Source of the DNA: Chitinophaga pinensis
GTDB taxonomy: Bacteria > Bacteroidota > Bacteroidia > Chitinophagales > Chitinophagaceae
Direction: 5' to 3'
Length of the DNA stretch: 64,000 nucleotides
NCBI GenBank assembly: GCA_943371705.1
Contig: CALRVV010000004.1
Location: forward strand, 157,858 to 221,857
The notes under the pieces are model-generated. The model had not been told where the DNA came from and did not search any database. It saw only the letters and a program-made list of their open reading frames with translations. The position numbers and the translations under genes were made by a program. Numbering within the stretch: position 1 is the stretch's first letter; each line of letters begins with the position of its first letter. Below, piece by piece: positions 21,497-62,694 of the stretch.

Positions 21497-21525
21497 CCTC
21501 CCCTTGGGGGAGGCTAGGAGGGGCC
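21497..21525 (-). repeat. GC-rich hairpin arm related to the DUF559-flanking repeat
   Basis: Minus strand GGCCCCTCCTAGCCTCCCCCAAGGGGAGG has the same CCCCTCC-spacer-CCCCC-loop-GGGG layout as the arms at 25401 and 60056. Confidence 0.55.
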
Positions 21526-21537
21526 TGAGCTGTATTT

Positions 21538-21640
21538 TCTCCCTTCGCAGGCATTATCCTGTGCAGGTTATCGGGTATTGTCTCAGCCTTTATGGTTATG
21601 TTACGTAATTTGAAACATAACAAAAAAAGCACCCCGGAAA
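21538..21640 (-). promoter_or_regulatory. TPP riboswitch
   Basis: Minus strand GGGGTGC...GGCTGAGACAATACCCGATAACCTGCACAGGATAATGCCTGCGAAGGGAG matches the TPP aptamer layout. Confidence 0.9.
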
Positions 21641-21839
21641 TTCAAACGGTTAAAAGAGCTTTAAAACACGAAGTTAAGGGAGTTTTAGATAAAATTTTAT
21701 AATAGTGTAACAAAACTACCTGCCCTTTCGTATAACTAAGCAAGTATAGCCACGAAACTGGTTTATCAAAGCAATCATATACAAATATGATTGCTTTGAT
21801 TTGATCGGTTCGTCTTTTTTTAATTTTAAAACTATAAAG

Positions 21840-24280: not shown

Positions 24281-24352
<72 letters not shown>

Positions 24353-24533: not shown

Positions 24534-25400
24534 ATGAAATCAGGTTTTGTAAACATATTTGGTAAGCCCAATGCAGGTAAAAGCACTTTGCTCAATGCGC
24601 TCATGGGCGAGAAGATGGCCATTGTATCGCACAAAGTGCAAACAACCCGGCATCGCATTAAAGCCATTTTAACCGAAAAAGATTACCAGATCATATTTTC
24701 TGATACGCCGGGCATCATTGAACCCAAATACAAACTGCACGAAAAAATGATGGATGCTGTCAGAGGCAGCCTGGAAGATGCAGATGTGGCTTTGCTGATA
24801 ACCGATGTACGGGAGAATACAGAAGAGAGCCATGCCATTTTCAGTTCGCTGCGGCTTAAGGCCCCGGCCATAGTTATTTTAAATAAAGCCGATACCGTTA
24901 ATGGGGAGCAGTTGAAAACAACCGCTGCTTTTTTTGAGGCACAGCCTTATTGCAAACAGGTGGTTTCCATATCGGCCTTGAAAAAAACAGGCATTGACGA
25001 ACTGTTAAAGGCCATTCTTACCTTTTTGCCCGAAGGTGCACCTTTTTATGAGGGCGATGACCTGAGTGATTTGCCCACAAAATTTTTTGTAAGTGAGATC
25101 ATCCGCGAAAAAATATTTTTATTGTACGGGGAAGAGATACCGTATCATGCAACCGTTTTGGTACAGGAGTTTAAAGAAAAGGCAAGTCTTACCAAAATAA
25201 GCGCCGAGATCATTGTGCAGCGTGAAACACAAAAGGGCATTATACTGGGCGGCGGTGGCAGCATGATCAAAAAACTGGGCACCGATGCCAGAAAGGATAT
25301 TGAAACATTTTTAGGCCGGAAAGTATTTTTGGAATTGTTTGTAAAAGTGCGGCCAAAGTGGCGGGATAATGAGTTTCAGTTGAAGGAGTATGGGTATTAA
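24534..25400 (+). CDS. era: GTPase Era
   Basis: GKPNAGKSTL, QTTR, DTPG, NKAD, KH domain EEIPY...IILGGGG. Confidence 0.96.
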   Translation: MKSGFVNIFGKPNAGKSTLLNALMGEKMAIVSHKVQTTRHRIKAILTEKDYQIIFSDTPGIIEPKYKLHEKMMDAVRGSLEDADVALLITDVRENTEESHAIFSSLRLKAPAIVILNKADTVNGEQLKTTAAFFEAQPYCKQVVSISALKKTGIDELLKAILTFLPEGAPFYEGDDLSDLPTKFFVSEIIREKIFLLYGEEIPYHATVLVQEFKEKASLTKISAEIIVQRETQKGIILGGGGSMIKKLGTDARKDIETFLGRKVFLELFVKVRPKWRDNEFQLKEYGY

Positions 25401-25570
25401 AAACCCCCTCCGCCCCCTGAAGGGGGAACCTGGAGTCTTAAATTAAAGACAGTATTTATTTACACTTAGGTACAATAAATGCTTAGATAAAAGTTTGATA
25501 TTTTTAATTTTTTAAAAAACTCTTAAAGGATCAGGGATCAAGTTCCCCCTTTAGGGGGCGGAGGGGGTTT
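25401..25570. mobile_element. Gene-less cassette bounded by DUF559-type inverted arms
   Basis: Left arm 25401-25432 and right arm 25539-25570 are 32-bp inverted repeats (2 mismatches) around about 105 bp of AT-rich non-coding DNA; arms match those at 60056 and 60510. Mobility is inferred. Confidence 0.65.
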
Positions 25571-25572
25571 TT

Positions 25573-26889
25573 ATGAGTTTCACAGTAGCAATAACAGGCA
25601 GGCCCAATGTGGGCAAAAGTACATTCTTTAACCGTTTGCTGGAGCAGCGTAAAGCCATTGTTGATGATATCAGCGGGGTTACCCGCGACCGGCAGTATGG
25701 CGTGGCCGAATGGGCTGGAAAATCCTTTAACGTAATTGATACCGGTGGCTTTGTGGCCGGCAGCAATGATGTGTTTGAAAAAGAAATACGCAAACAGGTG
25801 GTGATTGCCATTGAAGAAGCCAATGCCATTATTTTTATGGTAGATGCGGCAACCGGCATTACCGAACTGGATAACAGCATGGTTGATCTGTTGCGCAGAA
25901 GCAAGAAGCCGGTCTTTTTAGTGGTTAATAAAGTAGACAATCATGAACGGCTGATGGAAGCCAGTGAGTTTTATGCGCTCGGTTTCGAAAATATATTTTT
26001 TGTCTCCTCCATCAGCGGCAGCGGCACCGGCGAAATACTGGATGCCCTTACTGAAAAGATAAGCGAAAAGGATTCGGATGAAGCAGCAGCAGAAACAGAC
26101 CTGCCAAAAATTTCCATCATTGGCCAGCCCAATGTGGGCAAATCATCTTTACTGAATGCGCTGATCGGGCAGGAGCGCACCATTGTAAGTGATATTGCCG
26201 GTACCACCAGGGATACCATTCATACACACTACAATCTTTTTAACAAGGAGTTCATGCTCATTGATACGGCAGGCATCAGGCGCAAGACCAAAGTGCATGA
26301 AGACCTGGAGTTTTATTCGGTGATACGTGCCATTAAAGCGGTGGATGAATCGGATATATGCATGCTGATGCTGGATGCCGGCAAAGGCATTACTGCCCAG
26401 GACCTTTCTATTTTTTCGCTGGCCGTAAAAAAAGGAAAAGGTATTGTGGTGCTTGTTAACAAGTGGGACCTGGTGGATGAAAAGAAAACCAACACCACCA
26501 AAGATTATGAAAAGGAATTAAAGAAAAAATTTGCCCCTTTCAGTGATGTACCCATTATCTTTATTTCGGTTACCGAGAAGCAACGCATATTTAAAAGTAT
26601 TGAAATGGCGCTGGAAGTATTTGAGAACCGCAAGCGAAGAATACCCACCTCACAGCTGAATGAAGTGATGCAGAAAGTGATTGAGGCATACCGGCCACCG
26701 GTGGTTAGGGGCAACCAGTTAAAAATAAAGTATGTGACCCAGTTGCCTACCTTTACACCCAGCTTTGCATTTTTCTGCAATTATCCCGATGATGTAAAAA
26801 CACCTTATAAAAATTACCTGGAGAACCAGTTGCGTGAAAACTTTAATTTTACGGGTGTGCCGGTGAGGTTGTTTTTCAGGAAGAAATAG
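25573..26889 (+). CDS. der: Ribosome biogenesis GTPase Der (EngA)
   Basis: Two GTPase domains GRPNVGKST and GQPNVGKSS, DTGG/DTAG, C-terminal KH-like domain. Confidence 0.96.
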   Translation: MSFTVAITGRPNVGKSTFFNRLLEQRKAIVDDISGVTRDRQYGVAEWAGKSFNVIDTGGFVAGSNDVFEKEIRKQVVIAIEEANAIIFMVDAATGITELDNSMVDLLRRSKKPVFLVVNKVDNHERLMEASEFYALGFENIFFVSSISGSGTGEILDALTEKISEKDSDEAAAETDLPKISIIGQPNVGKSSLLNALIGQERTIVSDIAGTTRDTIHTHYNLFNKEFMLIDTAGIRRKTKVHEDLEFYSVIRAIKAVDESDICMLMLDAGKGITAQDLSIFSLAVKKGKGIVVLVNKWDLVDEKKTNTTKDYEKELKKKFAPFSDVPIIFISVTEKQRIFKSIEMALEVFENRKRRIPTSQLNEVMQKVIEAYRPPVVRGNQLKIKYVTQLPTFTPSFAFFCNYPDDVKTPYKNYLENQLRENFNFTGVPVRLFFRKK

Positions 26890-58250: not shown

Positions 58251-58850
58251 CCAGTTAGAAAATATCTTATTAAAAATAGCATCGGTCAGGTTCCTGGAAA
58301 TTTCATCCCCTTTTGATTGTTCAACCTGGCTCAGGCTTAGGTTGGCATCAAAATCAATGCTGTACGTTACATCGGCTTCAAAGTTCTTTTTCTCGTCGAG
58401 TGTATTTTTAAAAATAAGATGAAAATTGGCCGTTAACCGGTTAAGGCTGGTATTGGTGCCGCTGATACCGGTAGTACTGGTAAAGTATCCCGATACATAG
58501 CCGCTGATATCGTAATGGGCGTCATCATCATTGCTTTGGCGCAGCCGGGTGGTACCAATGATCTTTTGCTTCAGTTTTTCGGTAAGCTGCGGGCTCAGCT
58601 GCGGGTTCTTGTATTCGGCCCGGTTCTCAAAATAATTAACCCTGAAGGTTTTTACTTCGGGTGGTAAACCGCCGATATCTTTAAAGCCGTATTTGCAGGT
58701 AGCAAAGTTGAAGGTAACAAGTAGCAGCAGGCATATAGCAAATAGCTTGTTGCGGCTGATTGTAGATTTTAGATTGCCGATTTTAGATTGTTGGGTGCTA
58801 ACAGCTAACAGCTCATAGCTCAAAGCTTTCCCACTATTCTTCAATATCAT
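58248..58850 (-). CDS. lptE: LptE family LPS assembly lipoprotein
   Basis: Lipobox-like FATC-KYGFK, TFRVNYFENRA, position in the miaB-secG operon; exact start uncertain. Confidence 0.75.
   Translation of the reverse strand: MILKNSGKALSYELLAVSTQQSKIGNLKSTISRNKLFAICLLLLVTFNFATCKYGFKDIGGLPPEVKTFRVNYFENRAEYKNPQLSPQLTEKLKQKIIGTTRLRQSNDDDAHYDISGYVSGYFTSTTGISGTNTSLNRLTANFHLIFKNTLDEKKNFEADVTYSIDFDANLSLSQVEQSKGDEISRNLTDAIFNKIFSNW
58760..58824. repeat. Two adjacent heptamer arrays (4x TTTTAGA-like; 4x GCTMAYA-like)
   Basis: TTGTAGA TTTTAGA TTGCCGA TTTTAGA (58760-58787) and GCTAACA GCTAACA GCTCATA GCTCAAA (58797-58824). Confidence 0.75.
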
Positions 58851-60051
58851 ATTCTTTCAATTTTCTGTATAATGTTCTTTCACTAATACCCAGATCAAGC
58901 GATGCGTCTTTGCGTTTGCCTTTATGTTTCTTTAATGCTTTGATGATGAGTTCTTTTTCTTTGTCCATGATGCTCAATGATTCTTCTACATCTTCATGAT
59001 GTTGAATGGCATCGTTGCTGTGCGGCAGAAAAACCGGTTTTGAAGAGGGTAAATTGTTGTTGTTGACATCGGCAAAGGCCTGCTCATTATACCCTGCTGC
59101 ATGCCGCGCCATATCGGGGTTTTGTAACAGGTCGAAGAACATCTTTTTCAGCTCGTTCACATCTTTCTTCATATCAAAGAAAAGTTTGTACAGGATATCC
59201 CGTTCATTGGCAAATTCACTCTGGCTTACCGAGCCTGCACCACCTGCAAGTACTGGTAAACGTGAGTAATTATGATCGGGTAAAAAACTTTTCATGGTGT
59301 TTGCGTTGATCGTCTTATCCTGGCTCAGCACCGATATCTGTTCTGCAATATTCTTCAGTTCACGCACATTACCCGGCCAGGGATAGTTAATTAACACATC
59401 TTTCGCCCCTTCATCCAGCTGTACAGGTGTGCCTTTATAACGGTCGGAAAAATCGGTTACAAATTTGCGGAACAGTAAATAAATATCTTCCTTCCTGTCT
59501 CGTAAAGCCGGAACCCTGATAGGCACTGTGTTTAAGCGGTAGTAGAGGTCTTCCCTGAATTTGTTGGTTTGCGTGTATTCGATCAGTTCTTTGTTGGTTG
59601 CCGCAATTACGCGTACATCTGTTTTTTGTACTTTACTGCTGCCCACCCGAATGTATTCGCCGGCTTCTAGTACCCTTAACAAACGTGCCTGTGTGCCTAA
59701 AGGCAATTCGCCGATCTCATCTAAAAAGATAGTACCGCCATTTACGGTTTCAAAATAACCTTTGCGGCTGTCTACAGCACCGGTAAACGATCCTTTCTCG
59801 TGGCCAAATAATTCCGAATCAATGGTGCCTTCGGGAATGGCGCCGCAGTTAACGGCAATAAAGGGATTGTGTTTGCGGGCACTCAGTGAATGAATGATCT
59901 GTGAAAAAACTTCTTTACCCACACCGCTTTCTCCGTTAATGAGTACGCTCAGGTCGGTATTGGCCACCTGCACGGCTACATGCAATGCATGGTTAAGGCC
60001 CGGTGAGTTGCCGATAATGCCAAAACGGTTTTTTATTGATTGTAGTTCCAT
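58834..60051 (-). CDS. Sigma-54-interacting Fis family transcriptional regulator without receiver domain
   Basis: GESGVGKE, ELFGHEKGSFTGA, FLDEIGE, FREDLYYRL, WPGNVREL, C-terminal LGISERTLYRKL. Confidence 0.93.
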   Translation of the reverse strand: MELQSIKNRFGIIGNSPGLNHALHVAVQVANTDLSVLINGESGVGKEVFSQIIHSLSARKHNPFIAVNCGAIPEGTIDSELFGHEKGSFTGAVDSRKGYFETVNGGTIFLDEIGELPLGTQARLLRVLEAGEYIRVGSSKVQKTDVRVIAATNKELIEYTQTNKFREDLYYRLNTVPIRVPALRDRKEDIYLLFRKFVTDFSDRYKGTPVQLDEGAKDVLINYPWPGNVRELKNIAEQISVLSQDKTINANTMKSFLPDHNYSRLPVLAGGAGSVSQSEFANERDILYKLFFDMKKDVNELKKMFFDLLQNPDMARHAAGYNEQAFADVNNNNLPSSKPVFLPHSNDAIQHHEDVEESLSIMDKEKELIIKALKKHKGKRKDASLDLGISERTLYRKLKEYDIEE

Positions 60052-60055
60052 AATA

Positions 60056-60540
60056 AAACCCCCTCCGCCCCCTGAAGGGGGAACTTTGGAGTATGATTAT
60101 TTTAAGTGGTTTTCAATTATTTGTAAAACTGATTCTAATTCGTTTGTAATTTCTTTTGTTGTAAACCTGATGACTTTTAATCCCAAAACCTCTAATTCTT
60201 TTTGCCTTAATTCATCTTTAATTTTTATTTCTTCCAGATCATGAATACTTCCATCAATTTCAATAACCAGTTTTTTAGAATGACAATACATGTCAACAAT
60301 ATAAAATGAAATTGGATGTTGCCTTCTGAATTTTATATCAGGAAAATATTCTTTCAATTTACCCCATAAAATCATTTCAGTTGGTGTAACATTATTTCTC
60401 AACTTCTTTGCCTTTTCAAAAATCAAATGCCCGGCTCCATAAAACATATTTTCTTTCATAATCAACCCGACTTCTGAAATAAATAAATGCTGTTAAAATC
60501 TTCCGGCCCCAAGTTCCCCCTTTAGGGGGCGGAGGGGGTT
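60056..60540. mobile_element. DUF559 nuclease cassette bounded by hairpin inverted arms
   Basis: Arms 60056-60084 and 60510-60540 are inverted repeats identical to the era-der arms; the enclosed gene is visibly AT-richer than its neighbours. Mobility is inferred. Confidence 0.7.
60097..60459 (-). CDS. DUF559 / Vsr-like endonuclease domain protein
   Basis: AKKLRNNVTPTEMILW, FRRQHPISFYIVDMYC, LVIEIDGSIH, GLKVIRF; ATG 60459 or TTG 60465. Confidence 0.9.
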   Translation of the reverse strand: MKENMFYGAGHLIFEKAKKLRNNVTPTEMILWGKLKEYFPDIKFRRQHPISFYIVDMYCHSKKLVIEIDGSIHDLEEIKIKDELRQKELEVLGLKVIRFTTKEITNELESVLQIIENHLK

Positions 60541-61967
60541 ACCACGCTGCCAATTAGTGTGCCGGCTGTGCAGTCTACTATTTTGACAGTTACATATTCT
60601 CCCACTTTCAAATCTCCTTTTGCGAACACCACCACTTTATTCTGATCGGTTCTTCCATACAGGTCATTTTCGCTTTTTTTAGAATTGCCTTCAATCAGCA
60701 CTTTACGGGTTTTGCCTACTTCTTTTTGCATGGCCAATAAAGAATGTCCACGATACAGATCAACCATTTCCTGCAACCTTCTTTTCTTAACTTCCAGGGG
60801 GACATCATCCTCAAACCTTCGGGCAGCCAGTGTTCCGGGCCTTTCGCTGTAAAAATACATGTAGGCCAGATCGTATTTGCAGTATTCCATCAGGCTTAAC
60901 GATTCCTGGTGGTCTTCCTCGTTTTCGGTACAAAAACCGGTGATCATGTCGGTTGATAGCCCGCAATCGGGAATGAGCTCCCTGATGCGGTTTACTTTGG
61001 CGATATACCACTCCCGGCTGTACGTGCGGTTCATCATTTGCAATACGCGGGTACTGCCGCTTTGTACCGGCAGGTGAATGTAGTTGCAGATGTTTTCGTA
61101 TTTCACCATGGTGTGCAACACCTCATCGGTAATATCTTTTGGATGGGAAGTGGAAAAGCGAACACGCAACAATGGAGATATCAATGCAACCTGTTCCATC
61201 AGCATGGCAAATGTTACCACCTGATCTTTCTGTTCATCCACCCAATGGTAACTGTCCACATTCTGCCCCAGCAAAGTAACTTCGCGGTACCCTTCGTCAA
61301 ATAGTGATTTGCATTCGCTGATGATCGAGGCAGCATCGCGGCTTCTTTCGCGGCCACGTGTAAATGGCACCACGCAAAACGAGCACATATTATTACAGCC
61401 CCGCATGATGCTTACAAAAGCGTTTACGCCATTGCTGTTGAGGCGTATGGGCGCAATATCGGCATAGGTTTCATCGCGGCTGAGTAAAACATTTACCGCT
61501 TTCTGGCCGGTTTCGGCTTCTTCAATAAGACCGGGCAGGGTTCGGTAGGCATCCGGCCCTACCACCATATCAACCAGTTTTTCTTCTTCTAAGAACTGTG
61601 CTTTCAGTCGTTCGGCCATACACCCCAGAACGCCAACCAGCATGCCTGGTTTTTCTTTCTTTATCTTTCTGAATTCGGTCAGTCGTTTTCTGACAGTGGT
61701 TTCGGCTTTTTCGCGGATGGAGCAGGTGTTAATGAAAATGAGATCAGCCTGTTTGTAATTGTTTGTTGCACCAAAACCATTATCCATTAATATAGAAGCT
61801 ACCACTTCGCTGTCGGCAAAGTTCATGGCACAGCCATAGCTTTCTATATAAAAATATTTTTTATGCTGTTCCGCAGGGGGCTGCGGGTTGCTGTTTGTTG
61901 CAAGGGGGACAAATGCTTCTCCCTGCCTGGCTTCATCGTGTTCTTTGCTGGTAGCAACATGTAACAT
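60522..61967 (-). CDS. miaB: tRNA-2-methylthio-N6-dimethylallyladenosine synthase
   Basis: [29 protein letters not shown] radical SAM motif, TRAM domain. Confidence 0.96.
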
Positions 61968-62229: not shown

Positions 62230-62694
62230 ATGGGCAATAATTTATATATAGTTCGACATGGAAAAATGTTGATTGAAAACCGGAACAGACCCGATTACCT
62301 GCACTTATCGCCGGAAGGGATTGATTTCGGGCAGCACCTCGACAATTATTTTAAAGATGTTTATTTTGATCATATTCTTTACCAGTGTATTGATGTAAAA
62401 ACATCTGACCCTTATAACCGCTGCCAAAGTACCATCAGGGGCACAAAGGGTACCAAAAAAGAGTTTGATAAAACACAGCTAAGTAAAATATTTGAAGACA
62501 TCAATAAAGAAGAAAACGGCCGTAAGAATGTTTTGCTGTGTTACCGCACCGAAGCTTTTAATGTGATCAGCAATATCCTGGATATTGAAGACAACGATGA
62601 GTTCTTTAATAAAGATTACAACCGCATCTTTCATTTTACTTTCAGTAATAACAATTACAGTTTTGTAAAGAAGGTGAATACAGAAGAGAAGTGA
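62230..62694 (+). CDS. Divergent histidine phosphatase superfamily protein
   Basis: LYIVRHG, LSPEG, RCQST; second catalytic His not evident. Confidence 0.55.
   Translation: MGNNLYIVRHGKMLIENRNRPDYLHLSPEGIDFGQHLDNYFKDVYFDHILYQCIDVKTSDPYNRCQSTIRGTKGTKKEFDKTQLSKIFEDINKEENGRKNVLLCYRTEAFNVISNILDIEDNDEFFNKDYNRIFHFTFSNNNYSFVKKVNTEEK

Follow-up and report, generated by a model that had tools for sequence, protein, structure and literature searches.

What kind of element puts a nuclease gene between two hairpin-forming repeats, exactly at the boundary of two housekeeping genes? We asked this of a 64,000-nt stretch of a Chitinophaga pinensis genome (contig CALRVV010000004.1; hereafter the window), in which a small gene of the DUF559 family lies between miaB and the gene for a sigma-54-dependent regulator, bracketed by inverted arms, and in which the same arms recur between era and der around non-coding DNA (Table 1). 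The original prediction was that the two loci are the autonomous and non-autonomous members of a non-classical mobile element, or a nuclease-driven homing cassette. We find that they are one gene-bearing copy (60056-60540) and one gene-less copy (25401-25569) of an abundant family of hairpin repeats. We also think it somewhat probable that the arms are comparable to repetitive extragenic palindromic (REP) sequences, and that the DUF559 protein, a Vsr-type nuclease, is their cognate protein, in the role of the single-copy REP-associated tyrosine transposase (RAYT).

The core of the arm is AACCCCCTCCGCCCCCTGAAGGGGGAAC (28 nt). It is found on the + strand at 25402-25429 and 60057-60084, and its reverse complement, with the loop TAAA, is found at 25542-25569 and 60513-60540. 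These four matches compare with none in 100 shuffles. The arms do recur base for base at both loci, and the gene boundaries are as originally described. Each inverted arm spans 33-35 nt, with 94% complementarity to its partner; the two are 106 nt apart in the gene-less unit and 418 nt apart in the gene-bearing unit, which we call the cassette. The cassette's interior has 28% G+C as compared to 43-49% in the flanks. The gene-less element is predicted to fold with -87.6 kcal/mol (z = -10.2). At one end of the cassette, the outer end of the left arm is 4 nt from the ATG of the regulator gene (60049-60051). At the other end, the stop codon of miaB (TAA, 60522-60524) is inside the loop of the right arm, and the arm supplies the last five codons of miaB as well as the stop. 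This is why MiaB ends with ..TPSAP* in the window; the same ending is found at the loci L042, L121, and L009.

We scanned one genome per species for the exact arm pattern and found at least 118 loci, nearly all of them in Chitinophagaceae, Ferruginibacter, Mucilaginibacter, Pedobacter, and relatives. The repeat occurs in three forms: as solo arms, as pairs of arms 90-220 bp apart, and as cassettes of about 480 bp with an intact DUF559 gene. Among the matches listed, roughly one arm in two belongs to such an inverted pair, and the others are solo. Run X1, a lake metagenome, holds the window almost word for word. Its contig depth is 913 and 578 at the arms, 28.4 (and flat) across DUF559, and 24-28 across the flanking genes, which implies tens of copies of the arm for one copy of DUF559.

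The sequences of the arms differ by lineage, while their grammar is constant: a C-rich box, a spacer of 2-4 nt, and a hairpin with a pyrimidine 5' stem, a loop that is mostly TRAA, and a purine 3' stem. The stems vary with compensation on both sides (CCCCC, TCCCC, CCCCTCTCC, CCCTTCTCC, TCCCGAC, and others). Between the window and L121, synonymous divergence (dS) is about 1.4, which is near saturation, yet the arms are identical except for the R of the loop. In all of the arms with an asymmetric stem (19/19), the box is closer to the mirror image of the 5' stem than to the stem itself. Arms with a mirror box were seen in L139, L145, L164, L175, L187, L189, L195-L197, L223, L224, and L226. Because the arm is a mirror repeat fused to a hairpin, the form that is recognized may be a folded-back, three-stranded structure. 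The order of its parts (pyrimidine box, pyrimidine stem, purine stem) is that of a fold-back triple helix; we mention this as an idea, not as a finding.

As predicted, the arms abut stop and start codons, and they do so with a strong polarity. The box side abuts the stop of an open reading frame (ORF) in 63 of 116 arms and the start of an ORF in 12, while the hairpin side abuts a stop in just 7 arms and a start in 4. Solo arms have the same polarity (24 by the box side and 5 by the hairpin side). The stop codons just before an arm are TAA (48 cases) or TAG (7 cases) and never TGA, and another 18 ORFs end at the TRA within the loop. This polarity could reflect either the choice of targets or the survival of harmless insertions. 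Some arms are in frame inside genes, namely hutU (three genomes, at a common site; L024 6971-7650, L025 ~5083, and L084 ~3611), recQ (L016 ~4996), aroC (L034), and argF' (L095 ~1204). These insertions, which can be solo arms or whole short pairs, lengthen the enzymes by peptides such as PPPPPKGG or VPPLGGGGG.

The arms are specifically associated with DUF559. The arm loci include nine DUF559 genes or remnants, and all nine are flanked by arms. The original prediction had called for tabulating what lies between arm pairs, and among the matches listed, DUF559 is the only recurrent cargo. The other cargo was a 141-aa ORF in L064 and a 91-aa ORF in L001, neither of which has a Pfam match. For the reverse test, we considered 72 metagenomic loci that encode relatives of DUF559 (42-91% identical) and searched for flanking inverted repeats with a score of at least 35. 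Inverted arms flank DUF559 at 40 of these 72 loci (56%) and were absent from all 254 control windows, which were displaced by 0.9-2.4 kb. Arms are strongly enriched next to DUF559 genes, in support of the original prediction, and, as discussed below, the miaB site has both arms and cassette-free alleles. Some of the loci below the criterion for inverted arms have direct or multiple arms instead. Long direct repeats are present on both sides of DUF559 in L146, L147, L176, and L191, which suggests arrays of short pairs, and L143 (3001-4193) has two copies of DUF559 in tandem, 842 nt apart.

The type of arm also tracks the lineage of the protein. DUF559 proteins are 67% identical within an arm type and 48% identical between types (p = 2e-4), and the nearest neighbor of a DUF559 protein has the same arm type in 23 of 31 cases. 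Two types can coexist in one genome: in L095, the window's type of arm is in frame in argF', and the DUF559 gene (47% identical to the window's) is flanked by the arm type of its own lineage.

The protein itself is a member of its family, with E = 4.8e-29 and 100.9 bits for Pfam's DUF559 (PF04480), whose cutoff is 20.6 bits. Its closest relative with a solved structure is the DUF559 protein NGO0050 from Neisseria (PDB 3HRL, E = 1.7e-22), and the second is the catalytic domain of the homing endonuclease I-Bth0305I (3R3P, E = 1e-3). A structure predicted with AlphaFold2 (mean confidence, or pLDDT, of 87) and compared with Foldseek gave 3HRL (template modeling score, or TM, of 0.83) and 3R3P (TM 0.76), and then PvuRts1I/AbaSI and Vsr (1CW0). 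Four residues, D56, E67, D69, and H73, do not vary among 26 sequences and correspond to the EADGGQH of 3HRL; the protein has the conserved acidic and histidine residues of the family's active site. The ratio of nonsynonymous to synonymous substitution rates (dN/dS) between DUF559 cassettes is 0.08-0.22, which implies that the protein is kept functional by purifying selection. Vsr proper, which is named for very short patch repair, nicks T:G mismatches. The gene for Vsr proper is paired with a gene for a C5-cytosine methyltransferase, whereas the window's DUF559 has miaB and the regulator as its neighbors.

An exact look-up of the window's DUF559 protein returned no record. Many DUF559 proteins from JGI (P0241, P0246, P0261, and others) are labeled as "cyclase" or as "imidazole glycerol-phosphate synthase subunit HisF"; these names look like propagated misannotation. 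Many of these proteins come from short contigs (500-900 nt), which is what assemblies that break at the arms would yield. We found no close relatives of the protein in plasmids or phages, where the best matches are 40-46% identical. The arm was found in seven viral contigs from IMG/VR (L216-L222), some of which are only 4-5 kb, and often just before an ATG; none of the seven contains DUF559.

The cassette is a discrete unit that is found at different sites, as the original prediction would have it. When copies from different sites are compared, the alignment runs from ACCCCC to GGGGGT and stops there to the base, so homology ends exactly at the ends of the arms; the A-run and T-run beside the arms are part of the inverted repeat. 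Cassettes were found at miaB|regulator, smpB|sdaA, nuoD|nuoH, and korB|asd. The proteins that are nearest to the window's DUF559 are at smpB|sdaA (94% identical), at TIR|smpB in the other orientation (88%), and at nuoD|nuoH (83%); at the miaB site, the identity of the other copies to it is 92% and 78%. The leader of the gene (60460..60509) is conserved in cassettes at other sites, and it is probably the promoter region. In L214/L215, the cassette is inside the nuo operon (nuoD-DUF559-nuoH), and the C5/G5 hairpin of one arm has become TCCCGAC/GTCGGGA, with the outer G-run and the position at the ATG retained. We found no transposase or integrase at the window's loci, which agrees with the original reading of the sequence, and no transposase in the arm loci, among the matches listed.

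At miaB|regulator, the full cassette is present in the window, L042, and L121, and DUF559 persists at this site down to 79% identity of MiaB. L054 has a remnant that retains only the last 23 codons of DUF559. Close relatives without the cassette, whose existence was predicted, were also found. L199/L200 lack the cassette although their regulator protein is 100% identical to the window's. In its place are 54 nt that comprise the native end of miaB (..VVEKN*), 18 nt of spacer, and a solo arm that belongs to another type, TTCCCCCTTTAGGGGGTTAGGGGGT, and directly abuts the ATG of the regulator gene. This implies that the miaB-regulator junction has been hit by two families of arms. Genomes whose regulators are 95% identical have a 51-nt spacer with no arm. 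The cassette-free allele, with a joint of 60052->60540, is present in the runs X3, X6, X26, and X5, and X5 also holds the cassette sequence. We considered a simple empty site and ruled it out: in the alternative alleles the entire spacer is a different one, and one such spacer includes the solo arm just described. Whole-spacer replacement could arise by homologous exchange between strains, and these alleles do not reveal the chemistry of insertion.

Other junctions vary in a similar way. Between era and der, relatives have either an arm-free spacer of 104 nt or pairs of arms with unrelated interiors and partly different variants of the arm; every arm-bearing case starts at the stop and ends at the ATG. 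The era-der spacers behave like exchangeable modules. In L204-L207, the arm-free spacer is 104-105 nt, AT-rich, and is itself an inverted repeat (TGGATAATTGATAATGG ... ATTATCAATTATC) that likewise fills the gap between stop and start. Two further sites, asd|korB and that of L122/L018, have a full cassette in one genome and a short pair in others. Gene-less forms share sites with full forms, some of them are deletion derivatives, and there are decay series at fixed sites.

As for the window's own gene-less element, its interior is absent or different in related strains. We rejected the idea that it is a close internal copy of the cassette, because the interiors do not align overall. The right end of its interior resembles the DUF559 leaders of the cassettes in L045 and L211, so the element is most simply viewed as a deletion derivative of a gene-bearing unit, and this resemblance makes such an origin tentatively probable. 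Overall, the original prediction is partly supported: full and gene-less forms do share sites, but they are not a pair; they belong to a family with tens of copies per genome, including solo and in-frame arms.

Similar arrangements are found beyond the Bacteroidota. On the plasmid pDEIPR03 of Deinococcus proteolyticus, the arms around DUF559 are 56 nt long, show 95% complementarity, and follow the same grammar, and the Neisseria gene for NGO0050 (the protein in 3HRL) is flanked by arms with a hairpin and a mirror box. In Escherichia coli, ycjD encodes a DUF559-type nuclease and lies between sapF and fabI (L223/L227). Three such arms adjoin ycjD, and the TGA at which the gene ends is in the loop of the first. 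The repeat next to ycjD is present in all 5,426 complete genomes of E. coli, with a median of 18 copies and a maximum of 32, while ycjD is single-copy and is present in 3,378 of the 5,426. We sampled 60 genomes evenly: ycjD is present in 37, which have 16-37 places with the repeat (median 26), and absent from 23, which have 1-23 (median 5; ST131 has 1-3 and O157:H7 has 19); the difference is significant by a Mann-Whitney test that is not corrected for phylogeny (p = 3e-10). In strains that lack ycjD, such as CFT073 and O157:H7, ycjD and its arms have been replaced together by the eef efflux locus.

The repeat adjacent to ycjD may be BoxC, judging from its copy number, its length, and the consensus of that family. 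BoxC is a repeat of E. coli of 56 bp with about 22-32 copies and of unknown function, and the ycjD-adjacent repeat fits this published description in copy number and length (PMC2267715). It resembles the arms in the window in that it has the layout of box, spacer, and hairpin, has a similar copy number, and provides the TGA in the loop that ends ycjD. Also, some metagenomic DUF559 genes are flanked by a longer type of arm that is close in sequence to the ycjD-adjacent repeat. The window's arms, in contrast, have C5/G5 stems and a different sequence. We did not find any publication that links BoxC to ycjD, or DUF559/ycjD to repeats. A broader proposal, which we consider possible rather than probable, is that nucleases of the DUF559/YcjD type are the cognate enzymes of a cross-phylum class of repeats that includes BoxC, and so form a second partnership of the REP-RAYT kind.

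How might the nuclease act on the arms? We suggest that a dimer of DUF559 would recognize the box and the hairpin, either extruded from duplex DNA or on single-stranded DNA, and would nick it. The break would be repaired by copying from another arm-bearing locus. Such copying would keep the arms uniform, and it would spread the arms, and anything between a pair of them, to new gene boundaries. The copies that survive would be only those that leave the neighboring reading frames properly ended and started. Nicking and copying would account for several features: arms that stay uniform, the absence of target duplications, spacers that are replaced as a whole, and a gene-bearing unit that spreads without a strand-transfer enzyme.

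Several observations weigh against a repeat family that is served by DUF559. First, we found no target-site duplication (no direct repeats at the ends of the cassette) at five independent sites, as the original prediction had stated for the window, and the alleles at a given site differ by replacement of the whole spacer instead of by a simple insertion. Second, a PD-(D/E)XK nuclease cannot do strand transfer on its own, so spread would have to rely on host repair, and any binding or cutting of the arms by DUF559 is putative. Third, about 40% of the loci with DUF559 homologs lack inverted arms at a score of 35 or above, and the co-variation of arm type and protein could be due to co-inheritance. 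Finally, the copy number per genome is from the contig depth of a metagenome and not from a closed genome, and the contrast in E. coli follows phylogroups, so it rests on few independent events.

The closest analogy that we know of is the REP/REPIN-RAYT system, in which short hairpin repeats are associated with a RAYT transposase (Bertels and Rainey; PMC3116915, PMC3337134, PMC5581495). The original prediction did not name this system. Its suggestion of a mobile or homing cassette is supported in that the unit is discrete and polymorphic, and needs revision in that the alleles differ by replacement of the whole spacer and not by simple insertion. As in REP/REPIN-RAYT, the arms are hairpin repeats with a conserved 5' flank, are present in tens of copies, are mostly just outside of genes, and occur both singly and as inverted doublets. 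There is one putative cognate gene, which is single-copy, flanked by repeats, under purifying selection, and largely vertically inherited. The gene and the repeat type form cognate groups, and there are fewer repeats where the gene is missing. On the other hand, REP palindromes have a conserved tetranucleotide, GTAG or CGTC, at one end (PMC3733652), while the window's arms have neither tag and have a box that mirrors the stem. Also, the putative cognate protein is a Vsr-type PD-(D/E)XK nuclease and not a Y1 HUH transposase (IS200/IS605-like), the gene-bearing unit is polymorphic among strains and has copies at several sites, and the arms abut stop and start codons and occur in frame inside genes. 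So the family shares the descriptive features of REP/REPIN-RAYT and is not a member, because it lacks two defining ones, the Y1 transposase and the GTAG/CGTC tag.

Other known elements are less similar. Miniature inverted-repeat transposable elements (MITEs), including the Correia elements of Neisseria, also have terminal inverted repeats, are 100-200 bp, lie in or beside operons, and include gene-less derivatives. However, each arm has a hairpin and a mirror box of its own, arms are often solo, and there is no target-site duplication and no parent with a DDE transposase. Without a duplication or a transposase, the family is not a classical insertion sequence or MITE. Rickettsia palindromic elements are likewise palindromic repeats that are tolerated in frame inside protein-coding genes, but they have no sequence relation to the arms, most copies of the arm are at gene ends, and the arms have an identifiable cognate gene.

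The alternative that explains the most is that DUF559 is a free-standing homing endonuclease that parasitizes existing pairs of arms: it would cut gene-less pairs, and repair would copy the gene in via the homology of the arms, with the arms themselves spreading by another route. The relationship to I-Bth0305I (an EDxHD enzyme) in both fold and sequence is consistent with this, and free-standing homing endonucleases are likewise encoded by small AT-rich genes between conserved genes and are present or absent between strains. Homing would also account for the full and gene-less forms at the same sites in relatives, the presence/absence polymorphism of DUF559, the different type of solo arm that is found where the miaB site is unoccupied, and the low G+C of the cassette (28%). 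But the gene is single-copy, and tens of potential targets in the same genome are still without it; a functional homing gene would be expected to occupy them. Homing genes are short-lived, unlike this gene, which is under purifying selection and has persisted vertically at the miaB site; the protein has just 120 amino acids and lacks the extra DNA-binding domain of I-Bth0305I; and there is no intron or intein. A parasite of repeats does not predict that the number of repeats in E. coli should drop without ycjD. DUF559 differs from a classical homing gene in that its sites are many and unrelated and a dispersed repeat always bounds it; we think that homing of this kind is unlikely.

The other alternatives explain less of the evidence than does a repeat family with DUF559 as its cognate protein. 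The arms could be gene-end modules that are useful to the host (stabilizers of mRNA 3' ends, insulators, or stems for translational coupling), with DUF559 as an unrelated lodger. The polarity of the arms (the box side faces the end of an ORF in 75 arms, versus the hairpin side in 11, and in 24 versus 5 solo arms) is consistent with this idea, as are their provision of stop codons (TPSAP*), their positions 0-5 nt from ATGs, their very stable stem, and their conservation, which is far above that of synonymous sites. This would leave three things unexplained: that DUF559 is the one gene to recur between arms in different phyla, that the arm type follows the DUF559 lineage within one genome, and that arms are in frame in hutU, recQ, aroC, and argF'. 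Also, many relatives manage without arms at the same junctions. We consider it improbable.

We give even less weight to mobilization by an unlinked enzyme, such as an IS200/IS605-type or RAYT tyrosine transposase, with DUF559 as a passenger. A hairpin with a conserved 5' flank is the type of substrate that HUH transposases use, and the lack of target-site duplications is typical of that family. However, we found no such gene between or beside the arms in at least 118 arm loci or in 80 DUF559 loci, the arms lack the tags of REPs (PMC3733652), and the specific association with DUF559 would be left unexplained.

Finally, it is very unlikely that the element acts mainly as RNA, with arms that pair in the operon transcript, a stem that is processed like rRNA intervening sequences or Correia elements, and a DUF559 that binds or cuts RNA: the arm-arm stem of 33-35 bp, the co-orientation of the cassette with miaB and the regulator, and the existence of DUF559-like folds among RNA-binding mitoribosomal proteins would fit, but solo and in-frame arms cannot form the long stem, the arms have no match in Rfam, and one "RNA-Seq" contig that covers the 5' end of DUF559 and the right arm, from runs that consist of contigs only and have a low word share, proves nothing.

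Table 1. Positions of the cassette, the gene-less element, and the adjacent genes in the window.
Feature	Position	Strand	Details
Left arm, DUF559 cassette	60056..60084	.	C-run box CCCCC, spacer TCCG, hairpin CCCCC-TGAA-GGGGG, then AAC
DUF559 gene (Vsr-like PD-(D/E)XK), 120 aa	60097..60459	-	ATG 60457-60459, stop TAA 60097-60099
Leader and probable DUF559 promoter region	60460..60509	-	Between start codon and right arm
Right arm, DUF559 cassette	60510..60540	.	Inverted copy, loop TTTA
Stretch swapped for 54 nt in close strains	60053..60539	.	487 nt; joint 60052->60540
Left arm, gene-less element	25401..25429	.	Directly after era stop TAA (25398-25400)
Interior, gene-less element	25430..25538	.	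Non-coding, AT-rich, 109 nt
Right arm, gene-less element	25539..25569	.	3 nt before der ATG (25573)
Sigma-54-dependent regulator, flanking host gene	58834..60051	-	
miaB, flanking host gene	60522..61967	-	
era, flanking host gene	24534..25400	+	
der, flanking host gene	25573..26889	+	

At the gathering threshold, Rfam identified only a tRNA and a thiamine pyrophosphate (TPP) riboswitch in the whole window, with no match at the arms. The TPP riboswitch, the tRNA, and a G/C hairpin at the edge of the riboswitch, CCCCTTGGGGGAGGCTAGGAGGGG, are in the regions 21500-21530 and 21523-21646, and 24281-24352; the hairpin is loosely similar to the grammar of the arms. Just past miaB, a low-GC patch contains an AT-rich ORF of 154 aa (62230-62694). 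Many intergenic regions of arm-bearing genomes have a second recurrent motif, approximately GTACAAG(A/T)G(T/A)G(C/A)GAC(G/A)C and then (A/G)ATGA, which is often upstream of genes (L002, L010, L023, L027, L069, L095, and L099).

For annotation, the arms matter because they supply stop codons, change the C-termini of proteins (..TPSAP*), insert peptides (PPPPPKGG), and break metagenome assemblies at gene boundaries. More broadly, DUF559 is a very widespread family of proteins with no assigned role, and here it gains a testable one, similar to that of the transposases that are tied to REPs. If the link across phyla is true, it would explain both DUF559 and small GC-rich palindromic repeats such as BoxC, whose origin and partner it would provide, and this could be tested directly in E. 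coli K-12 with ycjD and BoxC. It would also mean that long-lived intragenomic replicators of the REP/RAYT type have a second class of enzyme.

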